Shown: positions 1 to 42,135 of the stretch, piece by piece | Numbering within the stretch: the first letter of the stretch is position 1 | Layout of the letters: each line of letters opens with the position of its first letter | NCBI GenBank assembly: GCA_016208765.1 | Contig: JACQXK010000009.1 | Coordinates: forward strand, 20,819-84,818 | From: Candidatus Omnitrophota bacterium | Lineage (GTDB): Bacteria > Omnitrophota > Gorgyraeia > Gygaellales > Profunditerraquicolaceae | Reading direction: 5' to 3' | DNA length: 64,000 bases | Notes under the pieces: model-generated | Databases searched by the model: none | What the model saw: only the letters and a program-made list of their open reading frames with translations | What the model was told of the DNA's origin: nothing | Program-made: the position numbers and the translations under genes

Positions 1-22
1 GTGTCATCTTGGCCATAAAGCT

Positions 23-1525: not shown

Positions 1526-2035
1526 ATGAAAAATAAAGTTCACAGTTTACGGTTTACAGTTTACAGTATTCTTTTCGCGCTGTTAACTGTAAATTGTACA
1601 TTATACACGTTCTGTTATGCTCAAATAATTTCTAGTAGCGAGTTGATCAATAATGCCAAAGAGTATGACGGTAAGGTTGTAACTTTTGAAGGCGAGGTTA
1701 TTGGGGATGTAATGGTGCGCGGGGATTTTGCCTGGGTTAATTTAAGCGATATAAGTAATGCTATTGGTATTTGGATGCCGGCGGATTTAGCGCGCCAAAT
1801 TGCATATACCGGCAGTTATAAATCAAAAGGAGATGCCCTTGAGGTTGCCGGGACTTTTCACCGCGCCTGCCCGGAGCATGGGGGAGATTTAGATATTCAC
1901 GCGTTGTCTTTGCGAAAGACCGACGCAGGGCGGCTTATTAAAGAGAGGGTGAACCAGAGCAAGAAAGTTTATGTTTTTATTTTATTGGGGGTATTGGGGT
2001 TGGCATGGATATTAACACTCTTAAAACACAAATAG
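1526..2035 (+). CDS. hypothetical secreted/membrane-anchored protein with possible OB-fold
   Basis: 169-aa ORF with an N-terminal signal/TM and a C-terminal TM helix. The core resembles small OB-fold periplasmic proteins. Its last 31 nt overlap the pheS start, so the start and extent are uncertain. Confidence 0.4.
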   Translation: MKNKVHSLRFTVYSILFALLTVNCTLYTFCYAQIISSSELINNAKEYDGKVVTFEGEVIGDVMVRGDFAWVNLSDISNAIGIWMPADLARQIAYTGSYKSKGDALEVAGTFHRACPEHGGDLDIHALSLRKTDAGRLIKERVNQSKKVYVFILLGVLGLAWILTLLKHK

Positions 2036-3069
2036 AATCTGAAATCCTTCAGGTTAATTCTACCGAGGAGTTAGAGGCATTTCGCGCCAAATACCTGGGA
2101 AGAAAAGGCGCCTTGGCAGAACTTACCGGCATGATCCCCCAGCTGCCGGTTGAACAACGCTCCGGCCTTGGCCAGCAGGTAAATGCGCTTAAAAATAATT
2201 TACAGGCATTAATAACCGAGAGGCAAAATAAACTTTCTGGAGTTTCAGCTCAACAAAATGTTTTAGTTAATTGTGATATCGGCATGCCTGGAATTGCCCA
2301 AGATTTAGGAAGGCTGCATCCTATTACCCAGATTATTGAAGAGATAAATGCAGTTTTTGTGAATATGGGATTTGTAGTTGCCGACGGGCCGGAGGTGGAA
2401 ACCGAGTTTAATAATTTTACCGGTTTAAACATCCCGCTTGATCATCCCTCGCGTGATGCCTTTGATACTTTTTATATTAAGCCGTTGGTCAGAAATAGCG
2501 AAATACAGGCGACCGGCGACAGGCGACCGGCGACAGGTGGACTATTGTTACGTAGCCATACCTCTCCGGTGCAGGTGCGCGCAATGAAGAGCCGTAAGCC
2601 TCCGTTAGCAGTAATTGTTCCGGGAAGGGTGTATCGGCCAGATGCAGTAGATGCCAGCCATTTATTTATGTTTCATCAGATAGAAGGTTTCATGGTGGAT
2701 ACTAATGTTACTTTTTCGGGGCTTAAGGGCATTTTGGAAACTTTTGCCAAGGAAGTATTTGGGGAAGAAATCAAGATGCGTTTCCGGCCGCATTTTTTTC
2801 CTTTTACCGAGCCTTCTGCAGAAGTGGACATTTCCTGTATTATTTGCAAAGGAAAAGGTTGTTCGGTTTGCGGGAGAAAAGGCTGGTTGGAAATATTAGG
2901 CGCAGGAATGATCCATCCCAATGTATTTAAGCAGGTTGGTTATGACCCAAAAAAATATAGCGGCTTTGCTTTCGGCATGGGGATTGAAAGAATTGCCATG
3001 TTAAAATACGGGATAAATGATATCAGGTTATTTTTTGAGAACGATTTGAGATTTTTAAAACAATTTTAA
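2005..3069 (+). CDS. pheS: phenylalanine--tRNA ligase alpha subunit; carries an in-frame heptamer-repeat insertion at 2506-2540
   Basis: Class II aaRS motifs (FRPHFFPFTEPS, GxGxER-like GMGIERIAML). Position and size match PheS, and pheT follows immediately. Confidence 0.9.
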   Translation: MDINTLKTQIESEILQVNSTEELEAFRAKYLGRKGALAELTGMIPQLPVEQRSGLGQQVNALKNNLQALITERQNKLSGVSAQQNVLVNCDIGMPGIAQDLGRLHPITQIIEEINAVFVNMGFVVADGPEVETEFNNFTGLNIPLDHPSRDAFDTFYIKPLVRNSEIQATGDRRPATGGLLLRSHTSPVQVRAMKSRKPPLAVIVPGRVYRPDAVDASHLFMFHQIEGFMVDTNVTFSGLKGILETFAKEVFGEEIKMRFRPHFFPFTEPSAEVDISCIICKGKGCSVCGRKGWLEILGAGMIHPNVFKQVGYDPKKYSGFAFGMGIERIAMLKYGINDIRLFFENDLRFLKQF

Positions 3070-3070
3070 T

Positions 3071-5107
3071 ATGAAAGTTACCTATAATTGGCTAAAAGAT
3101 TTTGTTGAGATCAAGCTTTCTCCTCAGGCCTTGGCAGATAAATTGACCATGGCCGGATTAGAGGTAAAGGCTATTGAGGAAAAAGAAGGGGACTTTGTAT
3201 TTGAGATAGAAATAACCTCTAACCGCCCGGATTGGTTAAGCGTCGTTGGTATTGCGCGGGAAGTCGCAGCGATTACCGGCAAAAAGTTAAATGTTAAAAG
3301 CCTGGCTCTTAATTTTAAGAATTTTAAACATCGCGCTTTAAACATTAATCAATTCAATATTAATATTGAATCTCCCAAAGACTGCCCTCTATATACCGCT
3401 AAAATTCTGCATAATGTTAAAGTGGGACAATCCCCGGCTTGGCTTAAAAATCGCCTGGAGATGGTCGGCTGCCGCAGTATAAATAACATCGTGGATATTA
3501 CAAATTATGTTCTTTTTGAGCAGGGCCAGCCATTACACGCATTTGATTTGGATAAATTATCTTCTAAGGAAATTATTGTGCGCCGTGCAAAGCAAGGCGA
3601 GAAACTTGTTACCCTTGATGCCGCAGAAAAAAGTTTAACCAAGGATATATTGGTGATTGCCGATAAAAATAATCCTGTGGCTATCGCCGGTGTAATGGGC
3701 GGGAAAGATACAGAGGTTACTCAGGATACAAAAAATATTTTATTAGAAGCTGCGGTCTTTAACCCGGCAGTGGTGCGTTTTGGCCGTCAGTTGCTTGGGT
3801 TAAACAGTGAGTCAAGTTACAGGTTTGAAAGGGGAGTAAATACGCAGGCAGTTGAGTTTGCCTCACTGCGGGCAACAAGATTAATGCAGGATTTATCCCC
3901 AGCAGAATATATTGGAGAAAAATCATCCGGCAGAGCGGGTAAAAACAAAAAAAATATTATTTTTGATGCTCTTTGTGTTCAAGAAAAATTAGGCATCCGC
4001 GTGCCTAACGTGCAGATAAAAACAATACTTACGCATCTTGGTTTTAGCATAAAAACAAAAAGCAAAAACGCCTTGATAATTGGGGTGCCTGGTTTCCGCC
4101 CGGATGTAAATTGCGCAGAGGATCTTATTGAGGAAATAGCGCGCATCTACGGTTATGAAAAGATAAAGACAACAATCCCCGCGGTTAAGCCCCAAGCTAA
4201 ATTTGCAGGCAACAGAGAATTGGTTTTGTTGACAAAAAATATTTTAACAGGCCTTGGATTAAATGAGGCAATAACTTACAGCCTTATTGATCGTGAATTA
4301 CTCAGCTTATATGCAAATACCGATGCTGTTGCTGAGGTCCGTAATCCTTTAAGCAAAGAGCAGGAAATTTTAAGGCCGGTTATCGTGCCCAGCTTGCTGC
4401 GCTGCGTGAGTTATAACTTGAACCAAAATCAGGAATTGGTAAATATTTTTGAAATTGCCAAGGTTTATTTGCCTGCCGGCGGCGTTATAAATGAAGAGCT
4501 GCATCTGGGAATTGTTCTTTGCGGGGAAAGAAACTTATTGCTTGAGCAGGGAAAGCTTAAAGATAAAATGAGCCTGCTGCATGTGAAGGGTATTTTAGAG
4601 GAGCTTGCGTCGCGAATGGGGATTGAAGATGTTGCTTTTTCCTGGGAAACCCCGGATACTGCGGGAGCTTTTGTAAATAAACAAAAAATCGGCATTATAG
4701 GGTGCCTGACACAGCAGGTTTTGGGAAAATTAGACATAAAACATAAAGACGTGTTTATCCTTGAAGTTTCCCTGGATAAACTTTTTAATTGTGTGAGCCT
4801 TAAGAAAAGATTTACTCCGCTTCCTAAGTTCCCGGGGATTATTAGGGACATTAGCTTTGTTGTAAAAAGCAGCATTAGTGTGAAAGAAATTATAGATGTC
4901 ATTAAAATAGCGGGCAAGCCGTTATTAGAGAATGTTGAAGTGACAGATTATTATCAGGGGCGCCAGATCCCTGCCGGAAGCAGGGGATTGACTATTTCCT
5001 GTTTCTATCGCCTTTTAGAGCGCACGCTGACTGAGGAAGAAATAAACCCTGTTCATACCAGCGCAGCCAGGCTCTTGACAGAAAAGTTTGGAGCAACGCT
5101 AAGGTAG
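3071..5107 (+). CDS. pheT: phenylalanine--tRNA ligase beta subunit (short form, 678 aa)
   Basis: B3/B4 and B5 domain-like sequence and a C-terminal FDX-ACB-like region directly after pheS. It appears to lack the N-terminal EMAP-type tRNA-binding OB domain of long PheT. Confidence 0.88.
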   Translation: MKVTYNWLKDFVEIKLSPQALADKLTMAGLEVKAIEEKEGDFVFEIEITSNRPDWLSVVGIAREVAAITGKKLNVKSLALNFKNFKHRALNINQFNINIESPKDCPLYTAKILHNVKVGQSPAWLKNRLEMVGCRSINNIVDITNYVLFEQGQPLHAFDLDKLSSKEIIVRRAKQGEKLVTLDAAEKSLTKDILVIADKNNPVAIAGVMGGKDTEVTQDTKNILLEAAVFNPAVVRFGRQLLGLNSESSYRFERGVNTQAVEFASLRATRLMQDLSPAEYIGEKSSGRAGKNKKNIIFDALCVQEKLGIRVPNVQIKTILTHLGFSIKTKSKNALIIGVPGFRPDVNCAEDLIEEIARIYGYEKIKTTIPAVKPQAKFAGNRELVLLTKNILTGLGLNEAITYSLIDRELLSLYANTDAVAEVRNPLSKEQEILRPVIVPSLLRCVSYNLNQNQELVNIFEIAKVYLPAGGVINEELHLGIVLCGERNLLLEQGKLKDKMSLLHVKGILEELASRMGIEDVAFSWETPDTAGAFVNKQKIGIIGCLTQQVLGKLDIKHKDVFILEVSLDKLFNCVSLKKRFTPLPKFPGIIRDISFVVKSSISVKEIIDVIKIAGKPLLENVEVTDYYQGRQIPAGSRGLTISCFYRLLERTLTEEEINPVHTSAARLLTEKFGATLR

Positions 5108-5456
5108 AAAAAGCGGTTTCTAGCCAGTTTGATTTCATATTAAAAGTATGGTATACTTTTTACAGGAAAGAGGAAAAATTTAATCCCTGCGGTGCGCGTT
5201 GGAGATTTTGATAATTATTGAACCAACATTATTATCAAGGGAGCCCAGAATTCCGCGACGGTTTTCCGTACAGGAGAGGGCACCCACCTGAAACCAACCG
5301 GTTCAGATGTCAACCCAACGGCATTTCCGCGGGGATTTTTTATTGAGGTCACAACTTATGGAGGGAGCAACGCGAACGAACATAAGTTGCAGCGAAGCGT
5401 CCGCGAATTAATACCTCTTCCGCCATATTGGGGGAAGAGGTATATTCATACCCACT

Positions 5457-6782
5457 ATGTCAGATCTTTTCAACGAAGAACAAAACCATAATAATTATAA
5501 AGAGTTGCCGCTTGCAGTGCGTATGCGTCCGCGCACTTTAGAGGAATTTGCCGGCCAGGGGCATATTTTAGGTAAAGGCAAACTTTTGCGCCGTGCAATT
5601 GAAGCTGACCGCCTGAGTTCGCTTGTTTTATTCGGGCCTCCTGGATGCGGGAAAACTTCCCTCGCCTGGTGTATTGCCAATGTTACCAAGGCTCATTATT
5701 TTGCTATTAATGCCGCTACTTCTAATGTTGAGGAGCTGCGTAAAATCATTGCCGCAGTAAAGCTGCGCAGAAAGAATACCGGTAAAAGAAGTATTTTATT
5801 TATTGATGAGATACATCGTTTTAATAAGTCCCAGCAGGATTGTTTGTTGCCGGACGTAGAAGAGGGGAACCCGATTTTAATCGGAGCCACTGTGCACAAC
5901 CCGTATTTTTCTCTAACCTCGGCTCTTTTATCGCGGTCGTTAGTTTGTGAATTAAAGGGTTTAAGCCAAAAAGAGATTGTCCAGGTTTTGAATTCGGCGC
6001 TAAAGGATAAAGAGCGCGGTTTCGGAAACTTAAAAATTAATTTAGATCCTCAGGCGCTGGAATTTTTAGCTAAGACCTGCGAAGGGGATGCCCGTCGGGC
6101 GCTTAGCGCTTTGGAGATCGGGGTCTTAACCACACAAAATAACCAAGACGGGAATATTGAAATCAATTTAGAAGTAGCTGCTGAGTCAATTCAGAAAAAG
6201 CCGGTGGTATATGATAATGCCGGAGATGCGCATTATGACACTGCCTCGGCATTTATTAAATCTATGCGCGGTTCCGACCCGGATGCGGCAATTTATTGGA
6301 TGGCGAAAATGCTCTATGCCGGGGAGGATCCGCGTTTTATCGCGCGCAGGATTTGTATTTTAGCTGCTGAAGATGTAGGCAACGCCGACCCTTTGGCCCT
6401 GGTGCTGGCCAATGCAGCGCTTGAGGTGGCTGAGTTTGTGGGGATGCCGGAGGCAAGGATACCTTTGGCGCAGGCTTGTATTTATGTGTCTTGCGCGCCA
6501 AAATCAAACGCAAGCTATATGGCTATTGACAAAGCCTACAAAGATATAGAAAATGAAAGATTGCAGGAGGTTCCTGAGCATCTTAAGGATGCCTCTTATA
6601 AAGGAGCGGAAAAATTAGGCCATGGCAAAGGATATAGGTACGCGCATGATTATCCTGGCCATTATGTGGACCAGCAATATACGCCTAAGGGCGTGAAATA
6701 TTATGAACCGACGGAAATGGGCTTTGAGGCAAAGATCAAGGAGAGAATGAAAAAACTAAAAAAACAAGGAGAGAAAGAATGA
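5457..6782 (+). CDS. rarA: replication-associated recombination protein A (AAA+ ATPase, MgsA/WRNIP1 family)
   Basis: Walker A LFGPPGCGKTSLA, Walker B ILFIDEIHRFNKSQQD and a C-terminal MgsA-type helical domain. Confidence 0.85.
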   Translation: MSDLFNEEQNHNNYKELPLAVRMRPRTLEEFAGQGHILGKGKLLRRAIEADRLSSLVLFGPPGCGKTSLAWCIANVTKAHYFAINAATSNVEELRKIIAAVKLRRKNTGKRSILFIDEIHRFNKSQQDCLLPDVEEGNPILIGATVHNPYFSLTSALLSRSLVCELKGLSQKEIVQVLNSALKDKERGFGNLKINLDPQALEFLAKTCEGDARRALSALEIGVLTTQNNQDGNIEINLEVAAESIQKKPVVYDNAGDAHYDTASAFIKSMRGSDPDAAIYWMAKMLYAGEDPRFIARRICILAAEDVGNADPLALVLANAALEVAEFVGMPEARIPLAQACIYVSCAPKSNASYMAIDKAYKDIENERLQEVPEHLKDASYKGAEKLGHGKGYRYAHDYPGHYVDQQYTPKGVKYYEPTEMGFEAKIKERMKKLKKQGEKE

Positions 6783-7237
6783 AGAAAATAATTGCAGTGG
6801 TTTGCAGTGCATTTATGATGGTAGCTACTTTAGGTTGCCAAAGCAATAAAACACGGGTAGCAGAAGGTTCGGTAATAGGAGGATTGTTGGGCGGGGCTGC
6901 AGGCGGCATTATCGGGCACCAGAGCGGACACGGCGGAGAAGGCGCTGCAATTGGGATAGCAGCCGGGGCATTGACCGGTGCGCTCATTGGAAGCCAGATC
7001 AACAAACCTGCACAAACAGAAACTGCTGCGCAGGCACAACCGCAGCAGGCAGCTAATCCCAACCAGATGACCCTCCAGCAGGTAGTGGATTTATCCAAGC
7101 AGGGGGTGAGTGAGACGGTGATTATTGATAAACTCAAATCTTCAAATTCAAAATTTAATTTAACCCAGGCTGATATTGATTACCTAAAACAACAAAAAGT
7201 CCCACAGAGTGTTATTGACGTAATGTCAGGAAAATGA
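6779..7237 (+). CDS. glycine-zipper lipoprotein (SlyB/17-kDa-antigen-like N-terminus)
   Basis: Lipobox (ATLGC) followed by a GxxxG-rich glycine-zipper segment and a Q/A-rich linker. Its ATGA start/stop overlap with the next gene suggests translational coupling. Confidence 0.5.
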
Positions 7238-10200
7238 GCACAATGCTTTTAATTGCGATTACCGGCGGAGTGGTGATGATAGGGTATGCGTTATATTCCA
7301 TATTCATCCCCGGCTCCGAAACAAATGAAAAGAAGACGGGGGGGAAGAATTTTTCTGCTCAGGCGGCACTTGTTGTTAATGAGCAAAAAGAGCAAAAGGC
7401 GCAAAAACTTCAGGGGCAAATGAATGTTTTAGAAAAAGAGCTGGTGCGTATTCAGGCAGAAAGCGCTCAGGAAAAGCTGGACATGGAATTGGCGAAAAAG
7501 AAAGAAGCGGAATTAGAATCAGAACTCTTGCGCAGGCAGGAATGGGTGTCTAAATCCGAAGGGATGTTGAAAAAGGTAAAAGATGAAAACCTGGAATTAA
7601 GAAAACATTTTCTGGTTAAGGAGAATCTTTTAGAGGAGGAGTTTGCCAAAAATGTTAATCTGGCTAAAGAAGCTCGTCTGCTTAATGAAAAGATTGCGGC
7701 ATTAGATAAAGAGTTAAAAGAAAAAGCAGAGCAAATTGAGATCCAGAAACATCAAATAGAAAAATACCTAAAAGAGAATAAAGAGCAGTCAGGAATTATT
7801 GCGCAACAAAAAAAGAAGGAAGAATCCAGCGAATGGGTGCCAAAGCAGGATTTTAATAAGCTTAATGAGGAGTATACTGAATTAGAAAAAGACCTGGAAG
7901 CGCGCGATGAGAAACTGCGTATTTTTGCCGAGGAGATCACGCATTTAAAACAGCAGTTAGCTGATAAAAAAATTGCTCAGCCTGTAAAAGAAGAAGTCAT
8001 TATTGAGGAAGCTCCTGTTGAAGAGGTTATCATCAAGGAGCCTGTTGTTCCTGAGGTTCAGGTTGTTGAGCCAGCTCCGGAAAAAGGAGTTTCTCTTGAA
8101 GTTGCAAATGTAGTTGAATCAAATATAGAGGAAGTAACACCGGCTCCTGTTATTGAAGAAAAACCCGCTGAAGAAATACACGAAGAGCCGGAAAAAGAAG
8201 CTAAGAAAAAAGAAGGCGAGTTGCTTCCGGCGGTTAACCTGGAAAAACTGCGTAATATCGGCATCATGGCGCATATTGATGCCGGAAAGACCACCCTTAC
8301 CGAGCGCATCCTTTTTTATACAGGTAAATCTCACAAGATCGGCGAGGTGCACGAGGGCGCTACGCAAATGGATTGGATGAAACAGGAGAGAGAGCGGGGC
8401 ATTACTATTACTGCGGCGGCAACGACTTGTTTCTGGAACAATTACCGCATAAATATTATTGATACTCCGGGGCATGTGGATTTTACAGTGGAAGTGGAAA
8501 GGTCTTTGCGTGTTTTAGACGGGGCAGTGGCAGTGTTTTGCGCTGTAGGAGGCGTGGAACCGCAATCTGAAACTGTGTGGCACCAGTCAAATAAATATAA
8601 TGTTCCCAAGATCGCATTTGTAAATAAAATGGACCGTACAGGAGCTGACTTTTATGCAGTGCTTAAAGGGATAGAACATGATTTGGGAGGAAATGTTATC
8701 CCTCTTGAGGTTCCCATTGGAAGTGAAGATAACTTCCAGGGGGTGGTGGACTTGATTGAAATGAAGGCATATTATTATATTGAAGAAACGCAGGGGAAAG
8801 ATTTTCGTATCGCAGAAATTCCCGCAGAATACCAGGAGAAGGCCAGGGAATACCGCAAGATTTTAGTAGAAAAGGCTGCGAGCTTTGATGAGGCGCTTAC
8901 TCAAAAATTCCTTGAGGCGGAAAGCTCCATAACTACTGAAGAAATTGTAGCAGCAATCCGTAAGGGAACAATTGCCAATAAAGGCGTGCCTGTTTTGTGC
9001 GGTGCGGCGTTTAAGAATAAAGGTATTCAGAAACTGCTTGATGCGGTAAATCTATTTTTGCCCTCTCCGTTAGATCTACCTGCGGTAACCGGGCACGACC
9101 CCGAGGACAAGGAAAAGGAATTTTTGCGCCGGCCGGTGATTGAAGAACCATTCTCCGGGTTGGCTTTTAAAGTTCAGGCAGATCCGCATATGGGAAAATT
9201 AGTTTATGTGCGGGTCTATTCAGGGGTGTTAAATACAGGAACGTATATTTTAAATTCTACAGTTGACAAGAGAGAGCGCGTCGGAAGGATTGTGCGCATG
9301 CATGCTAATCAAAGAGAAAATATTGATTACGCCTGCGCCGGAGATATTGTAGCGGTTGTCGGTTTATCAAATACAATTACAGGGCACACGCTTTGCGACC
9401 CGGGTTACCCGATACTTTTAGAAGCAATCCAGTTTCCTGTGCCGGTTGTGTCATTGAGTATTGCTCCAAAGAGCCGCTCGGATCAGGATAAATTAGGAAG
9501 GGGCCTTGCCAAGCTTGCCGAAGAGGACCCGACGTTCCTGGTGCAAAGCGACGAGGAAACCAAAGAAACAATTTTGACCGGGATGGGAGAGTTGCATTTG
9601 GAGATTATCGTTGACAGGCTTAAGGAGGAGTTTGGGGTAGAGGCAATTGTGGGACAGCCTAAGGTTGCTTATCGCGAGACGATTATGGAGCCTGCCCAAG
9701 GGGAGAGCAAATATATCAAGCAATCCGGAGGCCGCGGGCAGTATGGGCATGTAATGCTGCGTCTTACTCCGCAAACTGCGGGAGAAGGATTTGAATTTGT
9801 AGATAGTATCAGAGGAGGAGCGATCCCGCGGTCATTTATCCCGGCAGTAGAAAAAGGCGTGATTGAAGCAATGCAAAAGGGCGCGTTTGCAGGTTTTCCT
9901 GTTGTGGATGTAAAGGTTGATCTTTATGACGGATCATTTCACGAGGTGGACTCTTCGGAAATCGCCTTTAAGATGGCTGCGATACTCGGGTTTAAGGAAA
10001 TATTTATGCGGGCAAAACCAATTCTTTTAGAGCCCTACATGTCTCTTGAGGTGAGCACTCTTGAGGAGCATGTGAATGGTTGTGTGGGTTTTATTTGTTC
10101 TCGGCGGGGAAAGATTATTAATATTGATGTAAAGGGTAAACAGAAAGTAATTTCTGCTGAGGTGCCCCTTGCGGAAATGTTTGGTTATGTTAGCAGTTTT

Positions 10201-10317
10201 CGTTCTCTAACCAGCGGACGCGCAAACGCGACCATGGAATTCTCCAAATACATGCAGGTGCCGCATGAAATCGCCCAGAAGATCATTGAGGAAAAACAGG
10301 CTAAGGAAAAGAAGTAA
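7234..10317 (+). CDS. elongation factor G paralog with ~330-aa N-terminal TM + coiled-coil + acidic/Pro-rich extension
   Basis: From ~aa 335 there are canonical EF-G motifs ([28 protein letters not shown]) and domains II-V. Upstream, in the same frame with no stop, are a TM helix (aa 5-25), a K/E-rich coiled coil and an [12 protein letters not shown] repeat region. It is not in an rpsL-rpsG-tuf context. Confidence 0.8.
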
Positions 10318-10338
10318 GATTTAGGGCGTCAAGGCATA

Positions 10339-10466
10339 TTTCTCGCAGCACCGCTTGCCCCGCCCCAGCGTGGCGGGGCTGCGCTCGGGCGAAAACTTTT
10401 GCTCTGCCAGACTTCGTTATAGCGGTGCAACCGTGCCCGCAAAAGTTTTCTAACGTGCTGCTCGAA
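10339..10466. repeat. structured intergenic repeat element, copy A (nested inverted repeats; second copy at 51984-52108)
   Basis: ~85% identical to 51984-52108. Terminal arms are ttctcgcagcac / gtgctgctcgaa, with internal stems ccccgcc-ccagcgt-ggcgggg and gaaaacttttgc...gcaaaagttttc. Confidence 0.7.
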
Positions 10467-10494
10467 ATATACCTTGTCACCTCTTAGTTGATAT

Positions 10495-12582
10495 TTGAGT
10501 TTGAGTAATTTTATAGAATTATCGGAGAATAATAAGTTGTCAAAAATAATTGATTACAAAAAAGAATTGAACACGGCGCAATTTGCGGCTGTGCAGTCTA
10601 CTGATGGGCCGCATCTGGTGATCGCCGGGGCCGGAAGCGGCAAGACCAGGGTTCTGACTTATAGGGTGGCGTATTTAGTTGAAAAAGGCATCAGGCCCGA
10701 TGAGATACTGCTGCTTACTTTTACACGCAAGGCATCAGAGGAGATGTTGCGCAGGGCCTCTTTGTTATTGGATGAACGCTGCAATCATGTTTCCGGCGGG
10801 ACATTTCATTCTTTTGCCAACATGGTATTAAGAAAATACGCGCAGGCAGTCGGGATCAGCAATAGTTTTACCATCCTTGACCAGTCAGATGCCGAAGATA
10901 CCGTAAATTTGGTGCGCACTCAGCTCGGGTTCCATAAAACTGATAAACGCTTTCCGCGCAAGGCAGCGCTTCTGGAGCTGATTTCAAAAAGCGTGAATAA
11001 GTCCGAGGATATTGAGAATATCTTGTATGAAGAATACTCTCATTTTATGGAATGGAGCGACGAGGTTAAGAAAATCCGTGATGAATACAAGAAATACAAG
11101 CATCTAAAATCCATGCTGGATTATGACGACCTGCTGGTTTATCTAAAAAATCTTCTTACTACCCACGAAGAGGTGCGATTAACGCTTGCGCGTAAATATA
11201 AATATATTATGGTTGATGAATATCAGGATACCAATAAATTGCAGGCTTATATCGCCTGCCTTTTGGCTTCGGAACATAAGAATATTATGGTCGTAGGCGA
11301 TGATGCTCAGAGCATCTATTCTTTTCGCGGAGCAAATTTTAAAAATATTATAGATTTCCCTAAAATCTTCCCAGGAGCGAAAATAATTGCCCTTGAAGAG
11401 AATTACCGTTCTACCCAGCCGATACTTGATTTGACTAACGCAGTTATCCGCCAGGCGCGCGATAAGTTTGAGAAAAATCTTTTTACGCGTAAGCGAGGAG
11501 ATAAGGCTCCGATTTTTATTGATGCTGAAGATGAGCATGCGCAGTCGCGGTTTATCGCAGATAAGATCTTAGAGCTGCGTGAGGAAGGGGTTGAGTTGGG
11601 AGAGATGGCGGTGTTATTTCGGTCGGGCTGGCACTCTAATGATCTGGAAATTGAGCTTTCAAGCCGGAATATACCTTTTACAAAATACGGCGGGCAAAAA
11701 TTCGTTGAGGCAGCGCACATAAAAGACATTACCGCTTACCTGCGCATAATTTATAATTTATCCGACGAGGTTAGCTGGTACCGTGCGCTTTTATTGATGC
11801 GAGGCATCGGCCCAAAGACAGCCGAGGCAGTTATCCAGCAGATTATTGCCCAGAAAAAAGGCTTAGGCATAGAAGAAAAGTTTTTGCATAAGTCGCAGGA
11901 CTTAAGGCAGCTTTTGGAGCTTTTTTCCAAAGTAAGTTCAGAGAGCCTCAAGCCCGCTGAAATGATAGAAATATTTTTAGGTTACTATCAACCGCTACTT
12001 AAAGACAAATATGATGATTTTCCAAAACGCCTTAACGACCTTGATTCTCTGATGCGCATTGCTGCGCGCTACCGGTCTTTGGAAAGTTTTCTTTCGGACA
12101 TGGCGCTTGATCCGCCGGAGAGAAGCATTGTTGAAGCAGGGTTTAGGGATAAGGATGATTCAAGGCTGACATTATCAACCATACATTCGGCAAAAGGACT
12201 GGAATGGCATACTGTATTTTTAATTTATGTGGCAGAAGGATATATGCCGTCTTATTTGTCATTAGAAAATGAAGATGAGATTGAAGAGGAACGCAGGCTT
12301 TTTTATGTGGCGGCGACACGCGCAAAAGAAAACCTGTTTTTATTAAAACCGCACCTTGACCGCCCGATGCGCGGTATGATGAATGAGGGCCGCCAAATTT
12401 TTACGCAGGTTTCCAGATTTTTGGAGGAAGGAAAGATCTTGGACAGGTTTGTGGATGTGCATGAGCTTGGTCCCCTGGATGCCCTTGATGATCTGGATGT
12501 TGAAGATATCCTTGGCCGCAGGCCTCAGGGAGAAGGAAAGTTTTTTAAAGAAATGCGGGAGTATTTTAATGATGCTCCTTGA
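10495..12582 (+). CDS. UvrD/PcrA/Rep-family ATP-dependent DNA helicase
   Basis: SF1 helicase motifs: GAGSGKTRVLTYR (motif I), MVDEYQDTN (DExx), VGDDAQSIYSFRGA, ENYRST and a C-terminal UvrD_C region. Confidence 0.85.
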   Translation: MSLSNFIELSENNKLSKIIDYKKELNTAQFAAVQSTDGPHLVIAGAGSGKTRVLTYRVAYLVEKGIRPDEILLLTFTRKASEEMLRRASLLLDERCNHVSGGTFHSFANMVLRKYAQAVGISNSFTILDQSDAEDTVNLVRTQLGFHKTDKRFPRKAALLELISKSVNKSEDIENILYEEYSHFMEWSDEVKKIRDEYKKYKHLKSMLDYDDLLVYLKNLLTTHEEVRLTLARKYKYIMVDEYQDTNKLQAYIACLLASEHKNIMVVGDDAQSIYSFRGANFKNIIDFPKIFPGAKIIALEENYRSTQPILDLTNAVIRQARDKFEKNLFTRKRGDKAPIFIDAEDEHAQSRFIADKILELREEGVELGEMAVLFRSGWHSNDLEIELSSRNIPFTKYGGQKFVEAAHIKDITAYLRIIYNLSDEVSWYRALLLMRGIGPKTAEAVIQQIIAQKKGLGIEEKFLHKSQDLRQLLELFSKVSSESLKPAEMIEIFLGYYQPLLKDKYDDFPKRLNDLDSLMRIAARYRSLESFLSDMALDPPERSIVEAGFRDKDDSRLTLSTIHSAKGLEWHTVFLIYVAEGYMPSYLSLENEDEIEEERRLFYVAATRAKENLFLLKPHLDRPMRGMMNEGRQIFTQVSRFLEEGKILDRFVDVHELGPLDALDDLDVEDILGRRPQGEGKFFKEMREYFNDAP

Positions 12583-12696
12583 CAAATGGGGATATAAATG
12601 TTAAGCTTATTCAAGTAAATTAACCCTTTAAGCTGGCCCCGGTGAGGGCGGCAAGGCAAGGAAGAATGAATTGCAAAATTATTATAAACAGGTTAA

Positions 12697-12727
12697 CCTC
12701 CGGCTCAAGAATAGCTGGAGGTTTTTT
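12697..12727 (+). terminator. hairpin + U-tract (terminator of the helicase gene and/or pyrR leader attenuator)
   Basis: cctccggct...agctggagg stem followed by TTTTTT, 15 nt before the pyrR start. Confidence 0.5.
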
Positions 12728-12741
12728 ATTGTAGGAATACC

Positions 12742-13278
12742 ATGAGAGAAAAAGCCAAGATTTTAGATCCAGAAGCAATAAACCGGGCGATGATGCGCAT
12801 TGCCCATGAGATCCTTGAGAAAAATAAAGGCACGGAATCGCTGTGTATTATCGGTATACGCAACCGTGGGGCGTATTTGGCGCAGAGATTAGCAGAGCGT
12901 ATTAAGAAAATTGATGCTGCAGATGTTCCTGTAGGGGTTCTTGATATTACTTTATACCGAGATGATCTTACGCTGATTGCCTCCCAGCCTGTGGTGCATA
13001 AGACAGAGATTAATTTTGACATCAGCGATAAAAACCTGATTTTAGTAGATGATGTTTTATATAGCGGAAGGACGATCCGCGCTGCGCTTGATGCTTTGGT
13101 TGATTTTGGGCGGCCTAAAAGTATTCAACTTGCGGTTTTAATTGACCGCGGGCATCGGGAATTGCCGATTCGCGCGGATTATGTGGGCAAAAACATACCT
13201 ACTGCGCAGACTGAAACAGTTGAGGTCCGCCTTCATGAATGCGACGATAAAGATGAGGTTGTGATTATTGAGAAATAA
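12742..13278 (+). CDS. pyrR: bifunctional pyrimidine operon regulator / uracil phosphoribosyltransferase
   Basis: 178 aa with a PRTase-type motif ([17 protein letters not shown]). It sits directly upstream of pyrB-pyrC. Confidence 0.85.
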
Positions 13279-19868: not shown

Positions 19869-20566
19869 AAAAACGCATTAAAATTAACGGGGTTATAATA
19901 TTTCTTGCTGTGGTGGTAATGGCGTTATTCCCAAAAGTTTTCTTCCGTCAGGCAGGAGGGCTGTTTGGAGATGTTGCAGAAATATTTGGCATCATTTTTG
20001 TTTTGTTAGGGCAGGTCTTACGCATTTCTGCTCGTGGATACAAAGCAGAAAATTCCCAGAACAGCCACAGGCTTATACAAGAAGGCCCTTATTCTTTGGT
20101 GCGAAACCCCATGTATTTAGGGATATTTCTTATAGGTTTTGGTGTGGTGCTTTGGTTATTTCAGATATGGGTAATTGTGGTTTTTCTGTTATTTTTCATC
20201 GTGCGTTACAATTTACTGATCATGGAAGAAGAAGAAAAGCTGGTAAAGTTCTTCCCCCAGGAATATCCTGTTTACCAGAGAAATGTTCCGCGCATCCTGC
20301 CTAATTTCTTGAAACTGAATAAGCAGGATATCGCAGAGTATCTGCCGGTAAAATTAAATTGGATCAAGAAAGAAATCAACTCCATTATACCGGTTTTGGC
20401 AGTGTCTTTTTTTATCGGGGCCTGGAAACAATTAAGGTTCTCCGGAATAAGCGGGCTTGTTAAAGAAGCAGTTATTTTTGACAGCGTGGTTATCATATTT
20501 ATCGGTTTGATACTATATTTGGCAAGAAATACAAGAGCAAATCTTAGCGGAAAAGAAAAAGGATAA
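19847..20566 (+). CDS. membrane methyltransferase, isoprenylcysteine carboxyl methyltransferase (ICMT/PEMT) family
   Basis: Multi-TM protein with the RNPMYLG motif and a downstream EE...L motif characteristic of ICMT-family enzymes. Confidence 0.6.
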   Translation: MPKVSKMKKRIKINGVIIFLAVVVMALFPKVFFRQAGGLFGDVAEIFGIIFVLLGQVLRISARGYKAENSQNSHRLIQEGPYSLVRNPMYLGIFLIGFGVVLWLFQIWVIVVFLLFFIVRYNLLIMEEEEKLVKFFPQEYPVYQRNVPRILPNFLKLNKQDIAEYLPVKLNWIKKEINSIIPVLAVSFFIGAWKQLRFSGISGLVKEAVIFDSVVIIFIGLILYLARNTRANLSGKEKG

Positions 20567-20571
20567 AAAGC

Positions 20572-21369
20572 GTGTTTCAGGTAAAGGCAAAAATAATTCA
20601 AAACAAACAGGTTAAAAAGAATTTCTTTCATTTGTTGGTGGATGCCCCGGAGATTGCCGGTAAAGCATTGCCCGGGCAATTTTTAAATATCAAGGTTAGC
20701 GATAATTTAGAGCCTTTGCTGCGCAGGCCGCTCGGAGTGCATCGTGTCAGTAAAAATAACATAGCAATGCTTTATGAAGTTGTCGGAAATGGAACGCAGA
20801 TTTTATCGCAAAGAAAAGCCGGGGAATATTTGGATATTATCGGCCCCTTGGGGAATGGTTTTGATTATCAGTCACCTGTCACCTGTCACCTGTCACCTGT
20901 GTTAGTTGCTGGTGGTATGGGGGTGGCTCCGTTATTATTTCTTGCGGATTTTTTAGCCCACAGTAAAAGTTTTAAAAGCTTAGTTTTTATCGGAGCCAAA
21001 ACAAAAAGCCAGTTGACTTGCGTGCAGGAATTTAGAGAATTAGGTTGCAAAGTAAAGATTGCCACCGACGACGGTTCAATGGGGTTTAAGGGCAGAGTTT
21101 CAGATCTTTTAACACATTTTCTACAGGCGACAGGAGACAGAAGACAGGCGACAATATTTAGCTGCGGCCCGCGGCCTATGCTTAAGGCAGTATCAGAAAT
21201 TTCCAGGAAGTTTAAGATTCCTGCGCAGATCTCTCTTGAAGAGCATATGAGTTGCGGCATAGGGGCTTGTATGGGGTGCGTGGTTCAAACCACAAGCGGC
21301 TACAAGAGAATTTGTAAAGAGGGCCCGGTTTTTCACGCAGATGAAATTGTCTGGGAGAGGGAGAAATGA
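20572..21369 (+). CDS. pyrK: dihydroorotate dehydrogenase (class 1B) electron-transfer subunit; contains two heptamer-repeat insertions
   Basis: FAD/NAD(P)-binding ferredoxin-reductase fold (RRPLGV, GGMGVAPL) and a C-terminal 2Fe-2S motif CGIGACMGC. It is adjacent to pyrD. Confidence 0.85.
   Translation: MFQVKAKIIQNKQVKKNFFHLLVDAPEIAGKALPGQFLNIKVSDNLEPLLRRPLGVHRVSKNNIAMLYEVVGNGTQILSQRKAGEYLDIIGPLGNGFDYQSPVTCHLSPVLVAGGMGVAPLLFLADFLAHSKSFKSLVFIGAKTKSQLTCVQEFRELGCKVKIATDDGSMGFKGRVSDLLTHFLQATGDRRQATIFSCGPRPMLKAVSEISRKFKIPAQISLEEHMSCGIGACMGCVVQTTSGYKRICKEGPVFHADEIVWEREK
20871..20901. repeat. in-frame heptamer tandem array (GTCACCT x4) inside pyrK
   Basis: gtcacctgtcacctgtcacctgtcacctgtg encodes SPVTCHLSPV; member of the CAGGCGA/TCGCCTG heptamer family. 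Confidence 0.8.
21124..21151. repeat. in-frame heptamer tandem array (CAGGCGA-CAGGAGA-CAGAAGA-CAGGCGA) inside pyrK, opposite orientation to the first
   Basis: caggcgacaggagacagaagacaggcga encodes QATGDRRQAT. Confidence 0.8.
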
Positions 21370-21725
21370 ACCAGTTGTTGTATATTGTTTTAGGAGTAGT
21401 TGCAGGGATATTTGGGGGGATGTTTGGTGTTGGAGGTGCAACAATTTTAGTGCCAGCTCTAATATATTTGTTCGGCCTTACGCAACATCAGGCTCAGGGG
21501 ACGACCCTTGCGATTATGATCCCGCCGATTGGTTTATTGGCTGCAATGAGATATTATTATAGCGGAAACGTTAAGTTGGGCATGGCAGGATTTATCTGCA
21601 TAGGTTTTCTTATTGGAGGATTATTTGGAGCGCACCTTGCCCATTTTATCCCTGATCAAGCGTTAAAGAAAATATTTGGGATATTTTTATTGGTTGTAGC
21701 AATAAGAATGATTTTTTGGAAATAA
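21366..21725 (+). CDS. small TSUP/DUF81-family membrane protein (half-size TauE/SafE-like)
   Basis: 119 aa, 4 predicted TM helices, glycine-rich GGxFGVGG signature. Confidence 0.5.
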   Translation: MNQLLYIVLGVVAGIFGGMFGVGGATILVPALIYLFGLTQHQAQGTTLAIMIPPIGLLAAMRYYYSGNVKLGMAGFICIGFLIGGLFGAHLAHFIPDQALKKIFGIFLLVVAIRMIFWK

Positions 21726-21726
21726 A

Positions 21727-22719
21727 ATGATAACTAATTTAACTGTAAATATTGGGAAGTTAAAATTAGAAAACCCTGTTATGGTTTGCTCCGGTACCTT
21801 TGGGTATGCCGGGGAGTTTAAGGATTTCTTGCCGCTTAAGAAGTTAGGGGCGATAGTAACCAAGACAATTACTTTAAATCCGCGGCAGGGGAATTTTCCT
21901 CCACGCACCTGTGAAACTCCGGCAGGAATGTTGAATTCTATTGGTTTGGAGAACCCGGGGTTGGCAGGATTTCTTAATGAAAAGCTTCCAATTTTAAAGA
22001 AAATCGGGGTTCCTGTAATTGTAAGTGTTGCTTCAGAAGGCGGCATAGCTGAATTTGTTAAGGCCGTTTCTGAATTAAACGATTTTAAAGAAGTCGCAGC
22101 TATTGAATTAAATATATCCTGTCCGAATATAGAGTCGCCAGTCACCAGTCACCTGTCGCCAGTCACCGGTCGCCAGTCACCTGTCGCCTGTCGCCGGTTA
22201 CCTGTGTTTAAGAACCGGCGGTTGATCTCCCAAGATCCACAGGCAACCTATCAACTGGTAAAACAAGTGCGCAAGGCAACGAAGAAAACTTTGATCACCA
22301 AATTATCACCTAACGTAACTGATATTTCTGAAATTGCCCTTGCCGCCGAAAATGCAGGAAGTGATGCAGTCAGCTTGATCAATACGCTAATGGGCATGAG
22401 CATTGATACAAAAACCATGAAGCCAAAAGTTGCGGCTGTTATTGCAGGATTAAGCGGGCCGGCAATCAGGCCGGTTGCTGTAAGAATGGTCTGGGAAGTC
22501 TACCAGAAAATTAAACTTCCCATAATAGGCATGGGTGGTATAATTGATACTTCCAGCGCCTTGGAATTTTTTCTGGCAGGCTCTACTGCTATTGGTGTCG
22601 GGACAGCAAATTTTATTGATCCTGCAGCTACAATCAGCATATTGCAGGGCATTAAATCTTATTTACGCAAAAACAGAATAAATAATATCGCTAAATTAAT
22701 CGGGGGATTGAAGGTATGA
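21727..22719 (+). CDS. pyrD: dihydroorotate dehydrogenase catalytic subunit (class 1B); contains a 9-unit heptamer array
   Basis: TIM-barrel DHOD motifs (NPVMVCSGTFGY, NxxSCPN, GGIxxxxxAxEFxLAGSTAIGVGT); partner of pyrK. Confidence 0.9.
   Translation: MITNLTVNIGKLKLENPVMVCSGTFGYAGEFKDFLPLKKLGAIVTKTITLNPRQGNFPPRTCETPAGMLNSIGLENPGLAGFLNEKLPILKKIGVPVIVSVASEGGIAEFVKAVSELNDFKEVAAIELNISCPNIESPVTSHLSPVTGRQSPVACRRLPVFKNRRLISQDPQATYQLVKQVRKATKKTLITKLSPNVTDISEIALAAENAGSDAVSLINTLMGMSIDTKTMKPKVAAVIAGLSGPAIRPVAVRMVWEVYQKIKLPIIGMGGIIDTSSALEFFLAGSTAIGVGTANFIDPAATISILQGIKSYLRKNRINNIAKLIGGLKV
22137..22206. repeat. in-frame heptamer tandem array (9-10 units GTCRCCN) inside pyrD
   Basis: gtcaccagtcacctgtcgccagtcaccggtcgccagtcacctgtcgcctgtcgccggttacctgtg encodes SPVTSHLSPVTGRQSPVACRRLPV between conserved PyrD blocks. 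Confidence 0.85.
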
Positions 22720-23381
22720 GCAGTGCCTCGCAAATCATCCTTGCTTTGGATGTGGATAACTTACAGGCAGCAAAGAATTTTGTGGATAAGCTGTATCCGC
22801 AAATAAAGATTTTTAAAATCGGTATCCAGCTTTTTACTTCCTGTGGCAGGGAGATTGTTGACTACATTAATAATAAAGGCGCAGAAGTTTTCCTGGACCT
22901 GAAATTTTTTGATATTCCTAATACCGTTGCCGGAGCTGTGCGAGAGGCAGTGCGCCTTAAGGTAAAAATGCTTACTATGCATATCTTGGGCGACGAGGAA
23001 ATGCTTAAGGCGGCAGTTAGCGCCAGAAACGATGAAGCTGGAACTTTAAAAATAAATAAACCGCTTTTAATAGGGGTTACTGTTTTAACCAGTAAAGACA
23101 CGGCTTCAAGTGACGTATTGACATTGGCTAAAATCGGCATTGAGTGCGGGCTTGATGGAGTGGTTTGTTCTGCCCGGGAGGCAGGATTGCTGCGCAAGGA
23201 AATCAAAAAAAGCTTTGTAATTGTTACTCCGGGGATAAGGCAGGCGAATACCGCTTCAGACGACCAGAAAAGAACCACGACAGTCCAGGAAGCGATTGCT
23301 TCCGGAAGCGACTTTCTTGTTGTGGGCCGCCCAATATTAAAAGCAGACGACCCGTTAAGAGCTGCAAAAGAGTTGGTGTAA
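22716..23381 (+). CDS. pyrF: orotidine 5'-phosphate decarboxylase
   Basis: LALDV...KIGIQLF, DLKFFDIPNTV and a C-terminal LVVGRPI phosphate-binding motif. Confidence 0.85.
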   Translation: MSSASQIILALDVDNLQAAKNFVDKLYPQIKIFKIGIQLFTSCGREIVDYINNKGAEVFLDLKFFDIPNTVAGAVREAVRLKVKMLTMHILGDEEMLKAAVSARNDEAGTLKINKPLLIGVTVLTSKDTASSDVLTLAKIGIECGLDGVVCSAREAGLLRKEIKKSFVIVTPGIRQANTASDDQKRTTTVQEAIASGSDFLVVGRPILKADDPLRAAKELV

Positions 23382-40862: not shown

Positions 40863-41066
40863 ATGGCCAAAGTTGTTATAAATAAAGAAAAGTGCAAGGG
40901 TTGTTTGTTATGTGTTAGTTTCTGTCCGAAAGGCTTATTGATTGTTGATACGGAGTTGAATACTAAAGGCATCAGGCCGGTAAAATTAAAAGAAGCAGCT
41001 GGATTTATTGGTTGTGCCCAGTGTGCGGTGATTTGCCCGGACTGCTGTATTGAAATTCATGAATAA
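40863..41066 (+). CDS. 4Fe-4S ferredoxin, delta subunit of 2-oxoacid:ferredoxin oxidoreductase
   Basis: Two CxxCxxCxxxCP motifs in 67 aa, immediately upstream of the alpha/beta/gamma subunits. Confidence 0.7.
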   Translation: MAKVVINKEKCKGCLLCVSFCPKGLLIVDTELNTKGIRPVKLKEAAGFIGCAQCAVICPDCCIEIHE

Positions 41067-42135
41067 GAAAATTTTGATGACAGGGAATGAAGCTTTTGCT
41101 AAAGGCGCTTTAGATGCAGGGTGCCGTTTTTATGCCGGCTATCCGATTACCCCGCAAAATGAGCTGCCTGCATATATGGCGTTAAATATGCCGCAGGTTG
41201 GGGGAGTGTTTATTCAGGCTGAGTCGGAGATCGCTGCAATTAATATGGTTTTTGGCGCTTCAGCCGCAGGAGCAAGGTCAATGACTTCTTCTTCAAGCCC
41301 GGGGATAAGCCTTAAGCAGGAAGGGATTTCTTATTTAGCAGGGGCAGAATTACCGTCGGTAATTATTAATGTCATGCGCGCAGGCCCTGGCTTAGGGAAT
41401 ATCTGGCCGTCGCAGTCTGATTATTTTCAGGCCACACGCAGCGCAGGGCACGGGGATAGCCACTGTATTGTCCTAGCGCCTTCTGCGGTGCAGGAGTCAT
41501 ATGATATTATGACGCTGGCGTTTGACCTGGCGGATAAATATCGTAATCCTGTAATGATTATGGGTGATGGTTTGTTGGGGCAGATGATGGAACCTGTTTT
41601 GGCAACTAACCAACGACAGGCGACAGGAGACAGGCGACAGGCGACTAAACCATGGGCAGTAACAGGATGTAAAGGAAGGAAACGCAACATTACCAAATCT
41701 TTTTACTTGCGGGAAGGCGATCTTGAGCAATTTAATATTTTATTACAGAAAAAATACCAAGAAATCCAGGAAAAAGAAGAGCGTTATGAAGGTTTATTTT
41801 TAGAAGATGCGGAATTAGTTTTGGTTGGGTACGGGACAATGTCTAGAATTGCCAAGTCGGCAATGTATAGATTGCGCGAAGAAAATTATAAGATAGGATT
41901 GATCCGGCCAATTACGCTTTGGCCTTTTCCAAAAAAGGTTTTTGAGAGTATGGGGAAAGCTATTTTCCTAGCCGTAGAAATGTCTTATGGGCAGATGGTT
42001 GAAGATGTTAAATTGGCGCTTAATTGCCGTTTTCCTGTGGAATTTCTTGGCCGTTCCGGCGGAGGGGTTGTATCTGAAGAAGATATAATTAATAAAGTGA
42101 AAGGCCTCATAAATAAAACAAACCGAGATGAATAA
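41050..42135 (+). CDS. 2-oxoacid:ferredoxin oxidoreductase alpha subunit; contains an in-frame heptamer array
   Basis: POR/KOR alpha-subunit N-terminal domain (GNEAFAKGALDAGCRFYAGYPITP) and transketolase-C-like region. Confidence 0.8.
   Translation: MKFMNKKILMTGNEAFAKGALDAGCRFYAGYPITPQNELPAYMALNMPQVGGVFIQAESEIAAINMVFGASAAGARSMTSSSSPGISLKQEGISYLAGAELPSVIINVMRAGPGLGNIWPSQSDYFQATRSAGHGDSHCIVLAPSAVQESYDIMTLAFDLADKYRNPVMIMGDGLLGQMMEPVLATNQRQATGDRRQATKPWAVTGCKGRKRNITKSFYLREGDLEQFNILLQKKYQEIQEKEERYEGLFLEDAELVLVGYGTMSRIAKSAMYRLREENYKIGLIRPITLWPFPKKVFESMGKAIFLAVEMSYGQMVEDVKLALNCRFPVEFLGRSGGGVVSEEDIINKVKGLINKTNRDE
41611..41644. repeat. in-frame heptamer tandem array inside the OFOR alpha gene
   Basis: caacgacaggcgacaggagacaggcgacaggcga encodes QRQATGDRRQAT. 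Confidence 0.8.

Follow-up and report, generated by a model that had tools for sequence, protein, structure and literature searches.

How does a tandem array of 7-nt units, a length that is not a multiple of three, come to lie within the coding sequence of a housekeeping enzyme, and what kind of element is it? The question is raised by a 64,000-nt stretch of DNA from Candidatus Omnitrophota bacterium (contig JACQXK010000009.1 of assembly GCA_016208765.1, positions 20,819 to 84,818; hereafter the window). Within it, pyrD (21727..22719, + strand), which encodes the catalytic subunit of a class 1B dihydroorotate dehydrogenase (DHOD; NF005574, 8.5e-108; TIGR01037), contains a 72-nt array of the heptamer GTCRCCN. 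On balance, and with modest confidence, we read this array as a translated long simple-sequence repeat (LSSR) belonging to a genome-specific dispersed family (GTCRCCN / NGGYGAC) that occupies tolerant surface loops of housekeeping enzymes in one lineage of Omnitrophota.

The array spans 22134..22205 on the + strand and reads, unit by unit, GTCGCCA GTCACCA GTCACCT GTCGCCA GTCACCG GTCGCCA GTCACCT GTCGCCT GTCGCCG GTTACCT GT. A chain of GTCRCCN units with at most one mismatch each covers 22134-22203, that is ten units, and the trailing GT extends the periodic stretch to 22205. The tract is imperfect, with five unit variants and 80% matches in the call made by Tandem Repeats Finder (22133-22195, period 7, 9.0 copies, score 70). 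An earlier note, made from the sequence alone, had reported 9-10 copies at 22137-22206; the array is real, but the nine units listed there omitted the first, GTCGCCA at 22134-22140. Chance can be excluded because Markov shuffles of 1.2 Mb gave 0.1 exact period-7 arrays and no period-8 arrays, and because lag 7 was the sole scoring lag, with eight segments, in a tolerant periodicity scan of the whole window (42% GC), in which lags 4-6 and 8-12 gave none. The same organism has been assembled independently (L001; Logan SRR12113406), and there the three arrays of the pyr locus are identical, with a difference of 1 nt in 6138.

To place the array in the protein, we aligned PyrD with its orthologs and with DHODB of L. 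lactis (1EP1_A). The array begins four residues past the catalytic Cys132 of the NISCPN motif, and its 24 codons are read as SPVTSHLSPVTGRQSPVACRRLPV, PyrD residues 137-160. Residues 4-136 and 167-327 align end to end with 1EP1_A, and the 30 residues between them (137-166) occupy the place of the five residues HGGQA (140-144 of 1EP1_A), directly after NISCPNVK. The NF005574 profile match is broken into two stretches that flank the array, and N129-N134 is invariant across 56 orthologs. These alignments place the insert between NISCPNI and LISQDP, which bears out the in-frame loop insertion proposed in the earlier note; its estimate of about 21 added residues was slightly low, as the net gain is 25 relative to 1EP1_A and 26 relative to the 5-residue loop of array-less Omnitrophota orthologs. 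Cys132 corresponds to Cys135 of 1EP1_A, the catalytic base on the flexible active-site loop of class 1 DHODs. In an AlphaFold2 model made with the ortholog alignment, the barrel is confident and residues 137-161 have a predicted local distance difference test (pLDDT) score below 50 and no secondary structure. The model predicts that the array encodes a disordered stretch by which the flap loop behind the catalytic cysteine is lengthened, in an enzyme that otherwise looks intact.

The GTCRCCN family is present at five loci in the 64 kb, in both orientations, and every copy lies in frame within an open reading frame (ORF) of the + strand. Recurrence of the heptamer in pheS, pyrK (twice) and the alpha gene of a 2-oxoacid:ferredoxin oxidoreductase had been noted before, and all four arrays were found in frame. 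Two of them lie in pyrK (20572..21369, +), which encodes the electron-transfer subunit of DHOD B. Array 1 (20871..20900, +) is a perfect 30-nt (GTCACCT)4GT in the loop between GPLGNGF and LVAGGMG, read as SPVTCHLSPV; array 2 (21123..21153, +) has the opposite orientation, ACAGGCGAC ACAGGAGAC AGAAGAC AGGCGAC A, and lies in the loop before the SCGP motif, where it is read as QATGDRRQAT. In pheS (2005..3069, +), four reverse-orientation units of (A/C)GGCGAC (2505..2537, +) are read as QATGDRRPATG between DTFY and LLRSHTS, in a loop of 23 residues compared with 7 (LKDYPKM) in the closest relative. The array in vorB (41050..42135, +), the gene for the oxidoreductase alpha subunit, is also reversed (41614..41645, +; CGAC AGGCGAC AGGAGAC AGGCGAC AGGCGAC) and encodes RQATGDRRQAT in the loop that separates GQMMEPV from KPWA.TGC. 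The family copies show no target-site duplication (TSD) and, apart from one 9-mer, no shared flanks.

Around two of these copies, the pyrK-1 array (20850-20912) and the reverse-complemented vorB array (41600-41665), the flanking words ATGGTTT and GTTAGTTGC are held in common. Such sharing has about a 1% probability of coincidence after multiple testing, and the second word in pyrK consists of conserved LVA(GG) codons; the shared words could be a trace of microhomology-guided copying.

The arrays of pyrD, pyrK-1 and pheS carry no sign of structure: the RNA fold of the pyrD array, which is purely direct and without palindromic structure, is no better than shuffles (z = -0.07), and z-scores for pyrK-1 and pheS are +1.5 and -1.0. 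A structural RNA or DNA cis-element at these three arrays was accordingly dropped as a candidate, their folds being no better than those of shuffles. Pairing of pyrK-1 (GTCACC) with pyrK-2 (GGCGAC) would entail one mispair per unit.

A heptamer can be read through only if it is free of stops in the frames that it presents, and three units make seven codons, as had been calculated correctly before. The codons available to GTCRCCN are GTC, RCC, NGT, CRC, CNG, TCR and CCN, among which a stop is impossible; in the opposite orientation, YGA turns into TGA when Y = T. The earlier statement that no copy contains a stop in either orientation therefore holds for the strand that is read and fails for the antisense strand, where the pyrD and pyrK-1 arrays have TGA in all three frames. 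In the window, forward arrays contain 8 GTCACC and 5 GTCGCC, and reverse arrays contain 0 GGTGAC and 9 GGCGAC (Fisher p = 0.006). The same filter is visible across Omnitrophota loci, in which consensus units with a cyclic stop are present in 15/92 arrays on the sense strand and 40/92 on the antisense strand, the random expectation being 40% (p = 1e-6). These two results, depletion of sense-strand stops and an orientation bias between A- and G-type units, support the proposal in the earlier note that arrays are tolerated only where they can be read through. The PyrD loops recovered from 81 loci all read through in one frame, and in about 200 PyrD orthologs or loci no broken frame was seen at the array. 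In the pheS hairpin of another genome, L202, the sense arms are GTCACC and GGCGAC, which are not exact complements.

To see how general such arrays are, we surveyed the pyrD loci of 80 further species representatives of Omnitrophota, 1.16 Mb in total. Among exact arrays with three or more copies, 35 had period 7, 11 had period 8 and 2 had period 6, with none at periods 2-5 or 9-24, and about zero expected; period 8 is thus the sole other preferred period beside 7. When mismatches were tolerated, the count rose to 91 arrays of heptamers and 17 of octamers, almost all of them 25-36 nt in length. By a simple gene model, under which about 93% of the DNA is genic, 93 of 109 arrays (~85%) lie within genes, 11 are intergenic and 5 cross a boundary. 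Of the loci with a PyrD that shares 64% identity or more with that of the window, 23/30 had arrays (14.2 per 100 kb); of those with PyrD below 62% identity, 4/25 did (2.5 per 100 kb; p = 9e-6). The 7-/8-nt arrays are lineage-restricted within Omnitrophota. The pyrD array is consequently not the founding example that the earlier note took it for: 7-/8-nt arrays fill the orthologous loops of many other Omnitrophota, and GTCRCC arrays also occur in unrelated metagenome contigs. A family private to this genome is ruled out by the survey, by those contigs and by the loops of PheS and VorB orthologs.

Two further observations concern the survey loci. One clade, marked by L(Q/H)KDK as its PyrD loop, lacks 7-/8-nt arrays altogether in ~250 kb (L048, L051, L053, L054, L057, L059, L062, L064, L066, L070, L071, L073-L076) and offers a negative control for tracing the cause of the arrays. 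Octamer arrays such as GTCACCAC, AAAGTCAC, TTAGCCGG and ACCGGCAC behave like the heptamer arrays, with about four units, in frame, and eight added residues per three units; they were seen at L014 7380-7410 and 10403-10432, L036 5795-5830 and 10406-10438, and in L027, L028, L031 and L008 (PyrD and PyrK loops).

The lengths of the PyrD loops show how the frame is kept. After SCPN, 41/80 species representatives have a loop of 5-6 residues, as in L. lactis DHODB and other bacteria. Longer loops cluster at 12-14 residues, a gain of 7 or 8 that equals three 7- or 8-nt units, with few between, then at 19-21 and then at 24-27; the longest class is mostly an array, a short spacer and an inverted copy, as in L009, where (AGTCCAC)4 and (CGTGGAC)4 are separated by 8 nt. 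Deleting 24 nt (three units) from the pyrD of L014 and L036 gives loops of exactly 5 residues. The earlier note had reasoned that orthologs with a comparable segment of ordinary sequence at this position would argue against an insertion; comparable segments exist, yet they are themselves repeat arrays, and the short loop of 5-6 residues is retained in about half of the species. Exact arrays are 30-34 nt long (28 + 2 to 6) and never 28-29, lengths of 32 are as common as 30 or 33, and multiples of three are not favoured. This distribution fits three units added on a short seed better than it fits a fixed cassette. Insertion of a fixed 30- or 33-nt cassette is disfavoured by the flat distribution over 30-34 nt and by the exact three-unit steps of the loops.

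Other enzymes show the same hot spots. PyrK has at least four array-bearing loops. In PheS, the loop between DTFY and LLRTHTS has 7 residues (LKDYPKM) in 44/118 orthologs and 10-36 in the rest, the window PheS having an 18-residue insertion there relative to P. aeruginosa PheS; the longer loops share peptide families, such as IGSPVTSHQSPVKTGDRRQATGGL, with PyrD and VorB loops. The VorB loop between GQMMEP and KPWALTGC contains 7-residue-periodic peptides in most orthologs. At the pheS site, the DNA of L202 is (GTCACCN)4-AAAC-(AGGCGAC)3-4, and the window retains the second (3') arm only. Likewise, the vorB element of the window has a longer counterpart, with remnants of arm 1, in the sister genome P0242 (85% identity). 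These fuller versions in L202 pheS and P0242 vorB show that, of the three reverse arrays of the window, at least two are second arms left over from older hairpin pairs. Just 7/109 arrays have a strict inverted partner at a distance of up to 110 nt; hairpin pairs include those of L202, L009 and positions 1535-1607 of the window.

The genome closest to the window is syntenic with it (L203 1851-2867 and L002 = GCA_016214325.1, against window 1-13000 and 20000-23000). Its PheS and VorB are 85% identical and its PyrD 74-78% identical to those of the window; 24 kb of it contain no strong heptamer array, and its pheS site is empty (LKDYPKM).

Comparisons between and within genomes indicate how units change and spread. 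L006 (TCGCATA x4) and L016 (TCGTACA x4) have arrays at the same site and in the same phase, and their units differ at two positions in all four copies; between L028 (TTAGCCAG) and L031 (TTAGCCGG) one position differs in all four units. Both patterns amount to concerted evolution, most simply through contraction to one unit followed by re-expansion. Together with the three-unit steps of the loops, these differences between species lend indirect support to changes of copy number by slippage. Identical unit classes are shared by 16/137 same-genome array pairs (11.7%) and by 25/4094 between-genome pairs (0.6%), a roughly 20-fold excess (p = 3e-14), which gives statistical support to the spreading family suggested in the earlier note.

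These observations suggest the following scheme. Arrays would arise and change length by slipped-strand or template-switch replication errors that, in this lineage, favour a 7- or 8-nt register. As 7 and 8 are not multiples of 3, the frame is kept only when three units (21 or 24 nt) are gained or lost together; for this reason loops grow in steps of 7 or 8 residues, and arrays have about four units or, as here, ten. Three successive units cover all three frames, and only units free of sense-strand stops can persist, the complement surviving as GGCGAC or GGAGAC and never as GGTGAC. Contraction to about one unit and re-expansion would keep each array homogeneous while the unit drifts between genomes, as the pattern of unit differences suggests. 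The resulting 7-residue-periodic peptide, predicted to be disordered, most likely has no function of its own and would be tolerated rather than selected. Units also appear to be copied between loci of one genome, as their within-genome sharing indicates, and arrays often occur as inverted hairpin pairs; the family therefore behaves like a tiny non-autonomous element.

Several findings weigh against this account. Unrelated loops of a single genome can contain identical 7-/8-mers in the same phase and without shared flanks, which local slippage alone cannot explain. A viable jump of three units is hard to account for, as the intermediates with one or two added units are frameshifts in essential genes such as pheS. 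At pyrK site 1 there is no net length change relative to 5KSW_B, the array replacing the native loop, and the pheS loop has lost the native residues KDYPK and is replaced, not simply added to. The window, L202 (71% identity) and P0124 (75%) all carry the pheS element, while the closest relative, L203 (85%), has a conserved empty site, as would be left by a mobile insertion or by short-tract recombination. For PyrD, the nearest relative is only 74-78% identical, and comparisons of copy number are thus between species. Finally, the recurrent placement of arrays beside catalytic motifs could reflect function.

The main rival explanation is that a ~30-nt array or a ~60-70-nt hairpin is a micro mobile element, copied by dedicated trans-acting machinery or templated repair in the manner of a miniature inverted-repeat transposable element (MITE) or a Rickettsia palindromic element (RPE), with slippage modifying the copies only later. 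We consider this doubtful but well short of negligible. It is kept alive by the sharing of units, the hairpins, the replaced native loops at pyrK site 1 and pheS and the filled and empty pheS sites of close relatives, the empty site being conserved: the same unit in the same phase recurs at 2-5 unrelated sites per genome and in both orientations, the same hairpin architecture and units are found in PheS, PyrD and VorB loops of different genomes, array abundance is lineage-restricted, and in-frame insertion into housekeeping genes has a precedent in RPEs (PMC10969869). Yet the copies lack TSDs and shared flanks, single arrays have no terminal inverted repeats (TIRs), exact lengths of 30-34 nt show no preference for multiples of 3, and native-length loops grow by exactly three units. 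There are, moreover, many units per genome and hundreds across genomes, only 7/109 arrays have a strict inverted partner (<=110 nt), and no transposase or reverse-transcriptase gene lies near any array in the annotated neighbourhoods seen. A selected role, either in the enzyme loop (modulation of the PyrD flap, for example) or as an RNA or DNA signal (protein-binding heptamers, or long-range pairing in pyr mRNA), seems to us unlikely. In its favour, four enzymes have arrays in the same loops beside catalytic motifs in many genomes, and pyrK and pyrD contain both forward and reverse arrays; each cold-shock protein binds a single heptamer (PMC4679880), and selection as disordered regions has been argued for Borg ORF repeats (PMC9879509). 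The short native PyrD loop nonetheless persists in about half of the species, unit and peptide sequences vary freely among genomes, the insert is predicted to be disordered, the fold scores of pyrD, pyrK-1 and pheS are unremarkable, pyrK-1 and pyrK-2 would mispair once per unit, and the same arrays are found in a signal peptide and outside genes as well.

Simple-sequence repeats in ORFs with units not divisible by 3 are a classic device of phase variation (PMC4692102), and gain or loss of a single 7-nt unit could in principle toggle pyrD. We regard this as very improbable: the tract is imperfect, with 80% matches and five unit variants, the hosts are housekeeping genes including essential pheS, not one of the ~200 PyrD orthologs or loci is out of frame at the array, and two independent assemblies agree on it. 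Neither a perfect tract in a surface or virulence gene nor out-of-frame alleles, the marks of a phase-variable locus, were found. Although short repeats in metagenome-assembled genomes (MAGs) are prone to mis-assembly, an assembly or sequencing artefact is hardly credible, given the identical arrays of the independent L001 assembly, a frame that is always preserved, an array of 72 nt that is well within read length and equivalent arrays in dozens of MAGs from differing projects and assemblers.

GTCRCC arrays are also present in many unrelated metagenome contigs, beyond Omnitrophota. A scan of metagenome contigs with the pattern (GTCRCCN)3GTCRCC found GTCRCC arrays in at least 120 contigs, with GC of 0.25-0.74 among the matches listed. 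The contigs listed (at least 120; 667 kb) contain 72 further exact heptamer arrays of other units, some of cyanobacterial and Xanthomonas type, and at most 10 arrays of any other period. Raw unit counts of GTCRCC arrays among the matches listed have small bumps at 4, 7 and 10, coding status being unreliable in GC-rich contigs. Also among the matches listed are very long GTCRCC-type arrays of up to 27 units (L135 176-363; L086 1-123 and 948-1120; L093 1065-1161; L110 6944-6998) and one contig of 25% GC with GTCGCCA x8.

We compared the arrays with repeat systems already described. Over-representation of heptamers in prokaryotes is already published, and the pyrD array is not the first of its kind: in many prokaryotes no class is more strongly over-represented than heptanucleotide LSSRs, for which polymerase-footprint slippage has been proposed as a cause (Mrazek, Guo and Shah 2007, as presented in PMC4692102 and PMC4679880). 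LSSRs resemble the present arrays in having head-to-tail heptamers beyond chance, a preference for period 7, a proposed slippage origin and a sporadic distribution across lineages. Published LSSRs with units not divisible by three are described as mainly non-coding, whereas ~85% of the Omnitrophota arrays lie within genes, in frame; the latter also have octamers as a second period, about four units, and a place in loops of essential enzymes. The pyrD array has head-to-tail units within the 1-11-nt range of heptanucleotide LSSRs and is longer than composition would lead one to expect, and its placement departs from the mainly non-coding one. Heterocystous cyanobacteria carry short tandemly repeated repetitive (STRR) sequences with units of the CCCCAGT, TTGGTCA and CAACAGT types. 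Dispersed heptamer families in which a single unit recurs, mostly between genes, include cyanobacterial STRR / GGGGAYT, GGGAATC of Xanthomonas and TAACTGA of Beggiatoa and Microcystis, with Nostoc also among the hosts (PMC4692102, PMC4679880). Shared features are one unit at many loci, both orientations and some inverted pairs, and a modal number of about four units is reported for Xanthomonas (PMC4692102, PMC4679880). The GTCRCCN family differs from these in its unit, genic placement, in-frame read-through, lack of a structure signal and phylum. The STRR analogy drawn in the earlier note is right in outline; the window has dispersed heptamer arrays (5 loci in 64 kb), yet none has an STRR unit and all five lie in ORFs rather than between genes.

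RPEs and intragenic MITEs are similar in another respect, being selfish-looking repeats found in frame in unrelated housekeeping genes, at fold-tolerant sites, and read through, with many RPE copies able to form hairpins (PMC10969869). RPEs, which insert in frame into housekeeping genes, are ~100-150 bp long, with a defined consensus and a conserved peptide (PMC10969869), whereas the Omnitrophota elements are 30-75 nt of 7-/8-nt tandem units that are open in three frames, vary in unit and lack TIRs and TSDs. Set beside MITEs and RPEs, the pyrD array shares in-frame read-through insertion and shows no TIR or palindrome, no TSD or conserved ends and no consensus of ~100-400 bp. Borg repeats, too, are genome-specific bursts of perfect tandem repeats in ORFs that encode disordered regions, have flanking partial repeats as possible seeds and occupy equivalent places in related proteins (PMC9879509). 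Borg ORF units are, however, divisible by three and virtually unique per genome (PMC9879509), whereas here the units are 7 or 8 nt and shared among loci, the frame is kept only by three-unit steps, and the peptide period of 7 or 8 residues comes from three units. The pyrD array thus has the disordered region of a Borg-type repeat (pLDDT <50, residues 137-161) without a unit divisible by three. We found no paper that describes such arrays in Omnitrophota.

Other features of the locus stand beside the GTCRCCN family. A second heptamer family in the window forms a hairpin at 1535..1607 (+ strand), with AGTTTAC x3.5 (1535-1567), 12 nt and inverted CTGTAAA (1580-1607), for which the RNA fold has z = -3.3; it is located in the signal-peptide coding part of ORF 1526-2035. 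Orthologs of this ORF have other heptamer arrays in the same region, TGTTTAA in L203 (1398-1422) and GTTCTCT x4.3 in L202 (1-30). Recurrent loop inserts that are not heptameric, LPAGQAG / LPVRQAG and FPPEADQPLAEA, were seen across proteins and genomes (PyrD, PyrK and PheS; P0012, P0025, P0082, P0155, P0192; pyrK of L008), and from their sequence the LPAGQAG-type and FPPEADQPLAEA inserts look like GC-rich palindromic DNA that is read through. Between pyrK and pyrD, and overlapping both by a few bases, is a TauE/SafE-like membrane ORF of 119 residues (21366-21725; PF01925 in L001), an unusual passenger for this gene pair.

A bolder proposal, which we put forward only tentatively, is that one Omnitrophota lineage bears undescribed, frame-agnostic micro-elements. 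These 7-/8-nt arrays, single or as hairpins and without stops in any frame, would copy themselves by a dedicated mechanism between loops that adjoin catalytic motifs of essential enzymes, possibly also between lineages via conserved flanks, and would be a main source of loop-length innovation in these proteomes.

One would expect essential genes to exclude repeats whose unit length is no multiple of three; here such repeats are abundant, and the frame is held by three-unit steps and stop-free units. A practical consequence is that the arrays will mislead those who align Omnitrophota proteins, build their gene trees or model their structures. The origin of heptamer arrays has been a question since the description of STRRs and the 2007 survey of prokaryotic simple-sequence repeats, and the contrast between array-rich and array-free clades could reveal what makes them, be it a trait of replication or repair or a mobile machinery. 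At the scale of the phylum, the arrays give a natural view of raw mutational repeats becoming protein loops, as de novo disordered segments beside catalytic residues.

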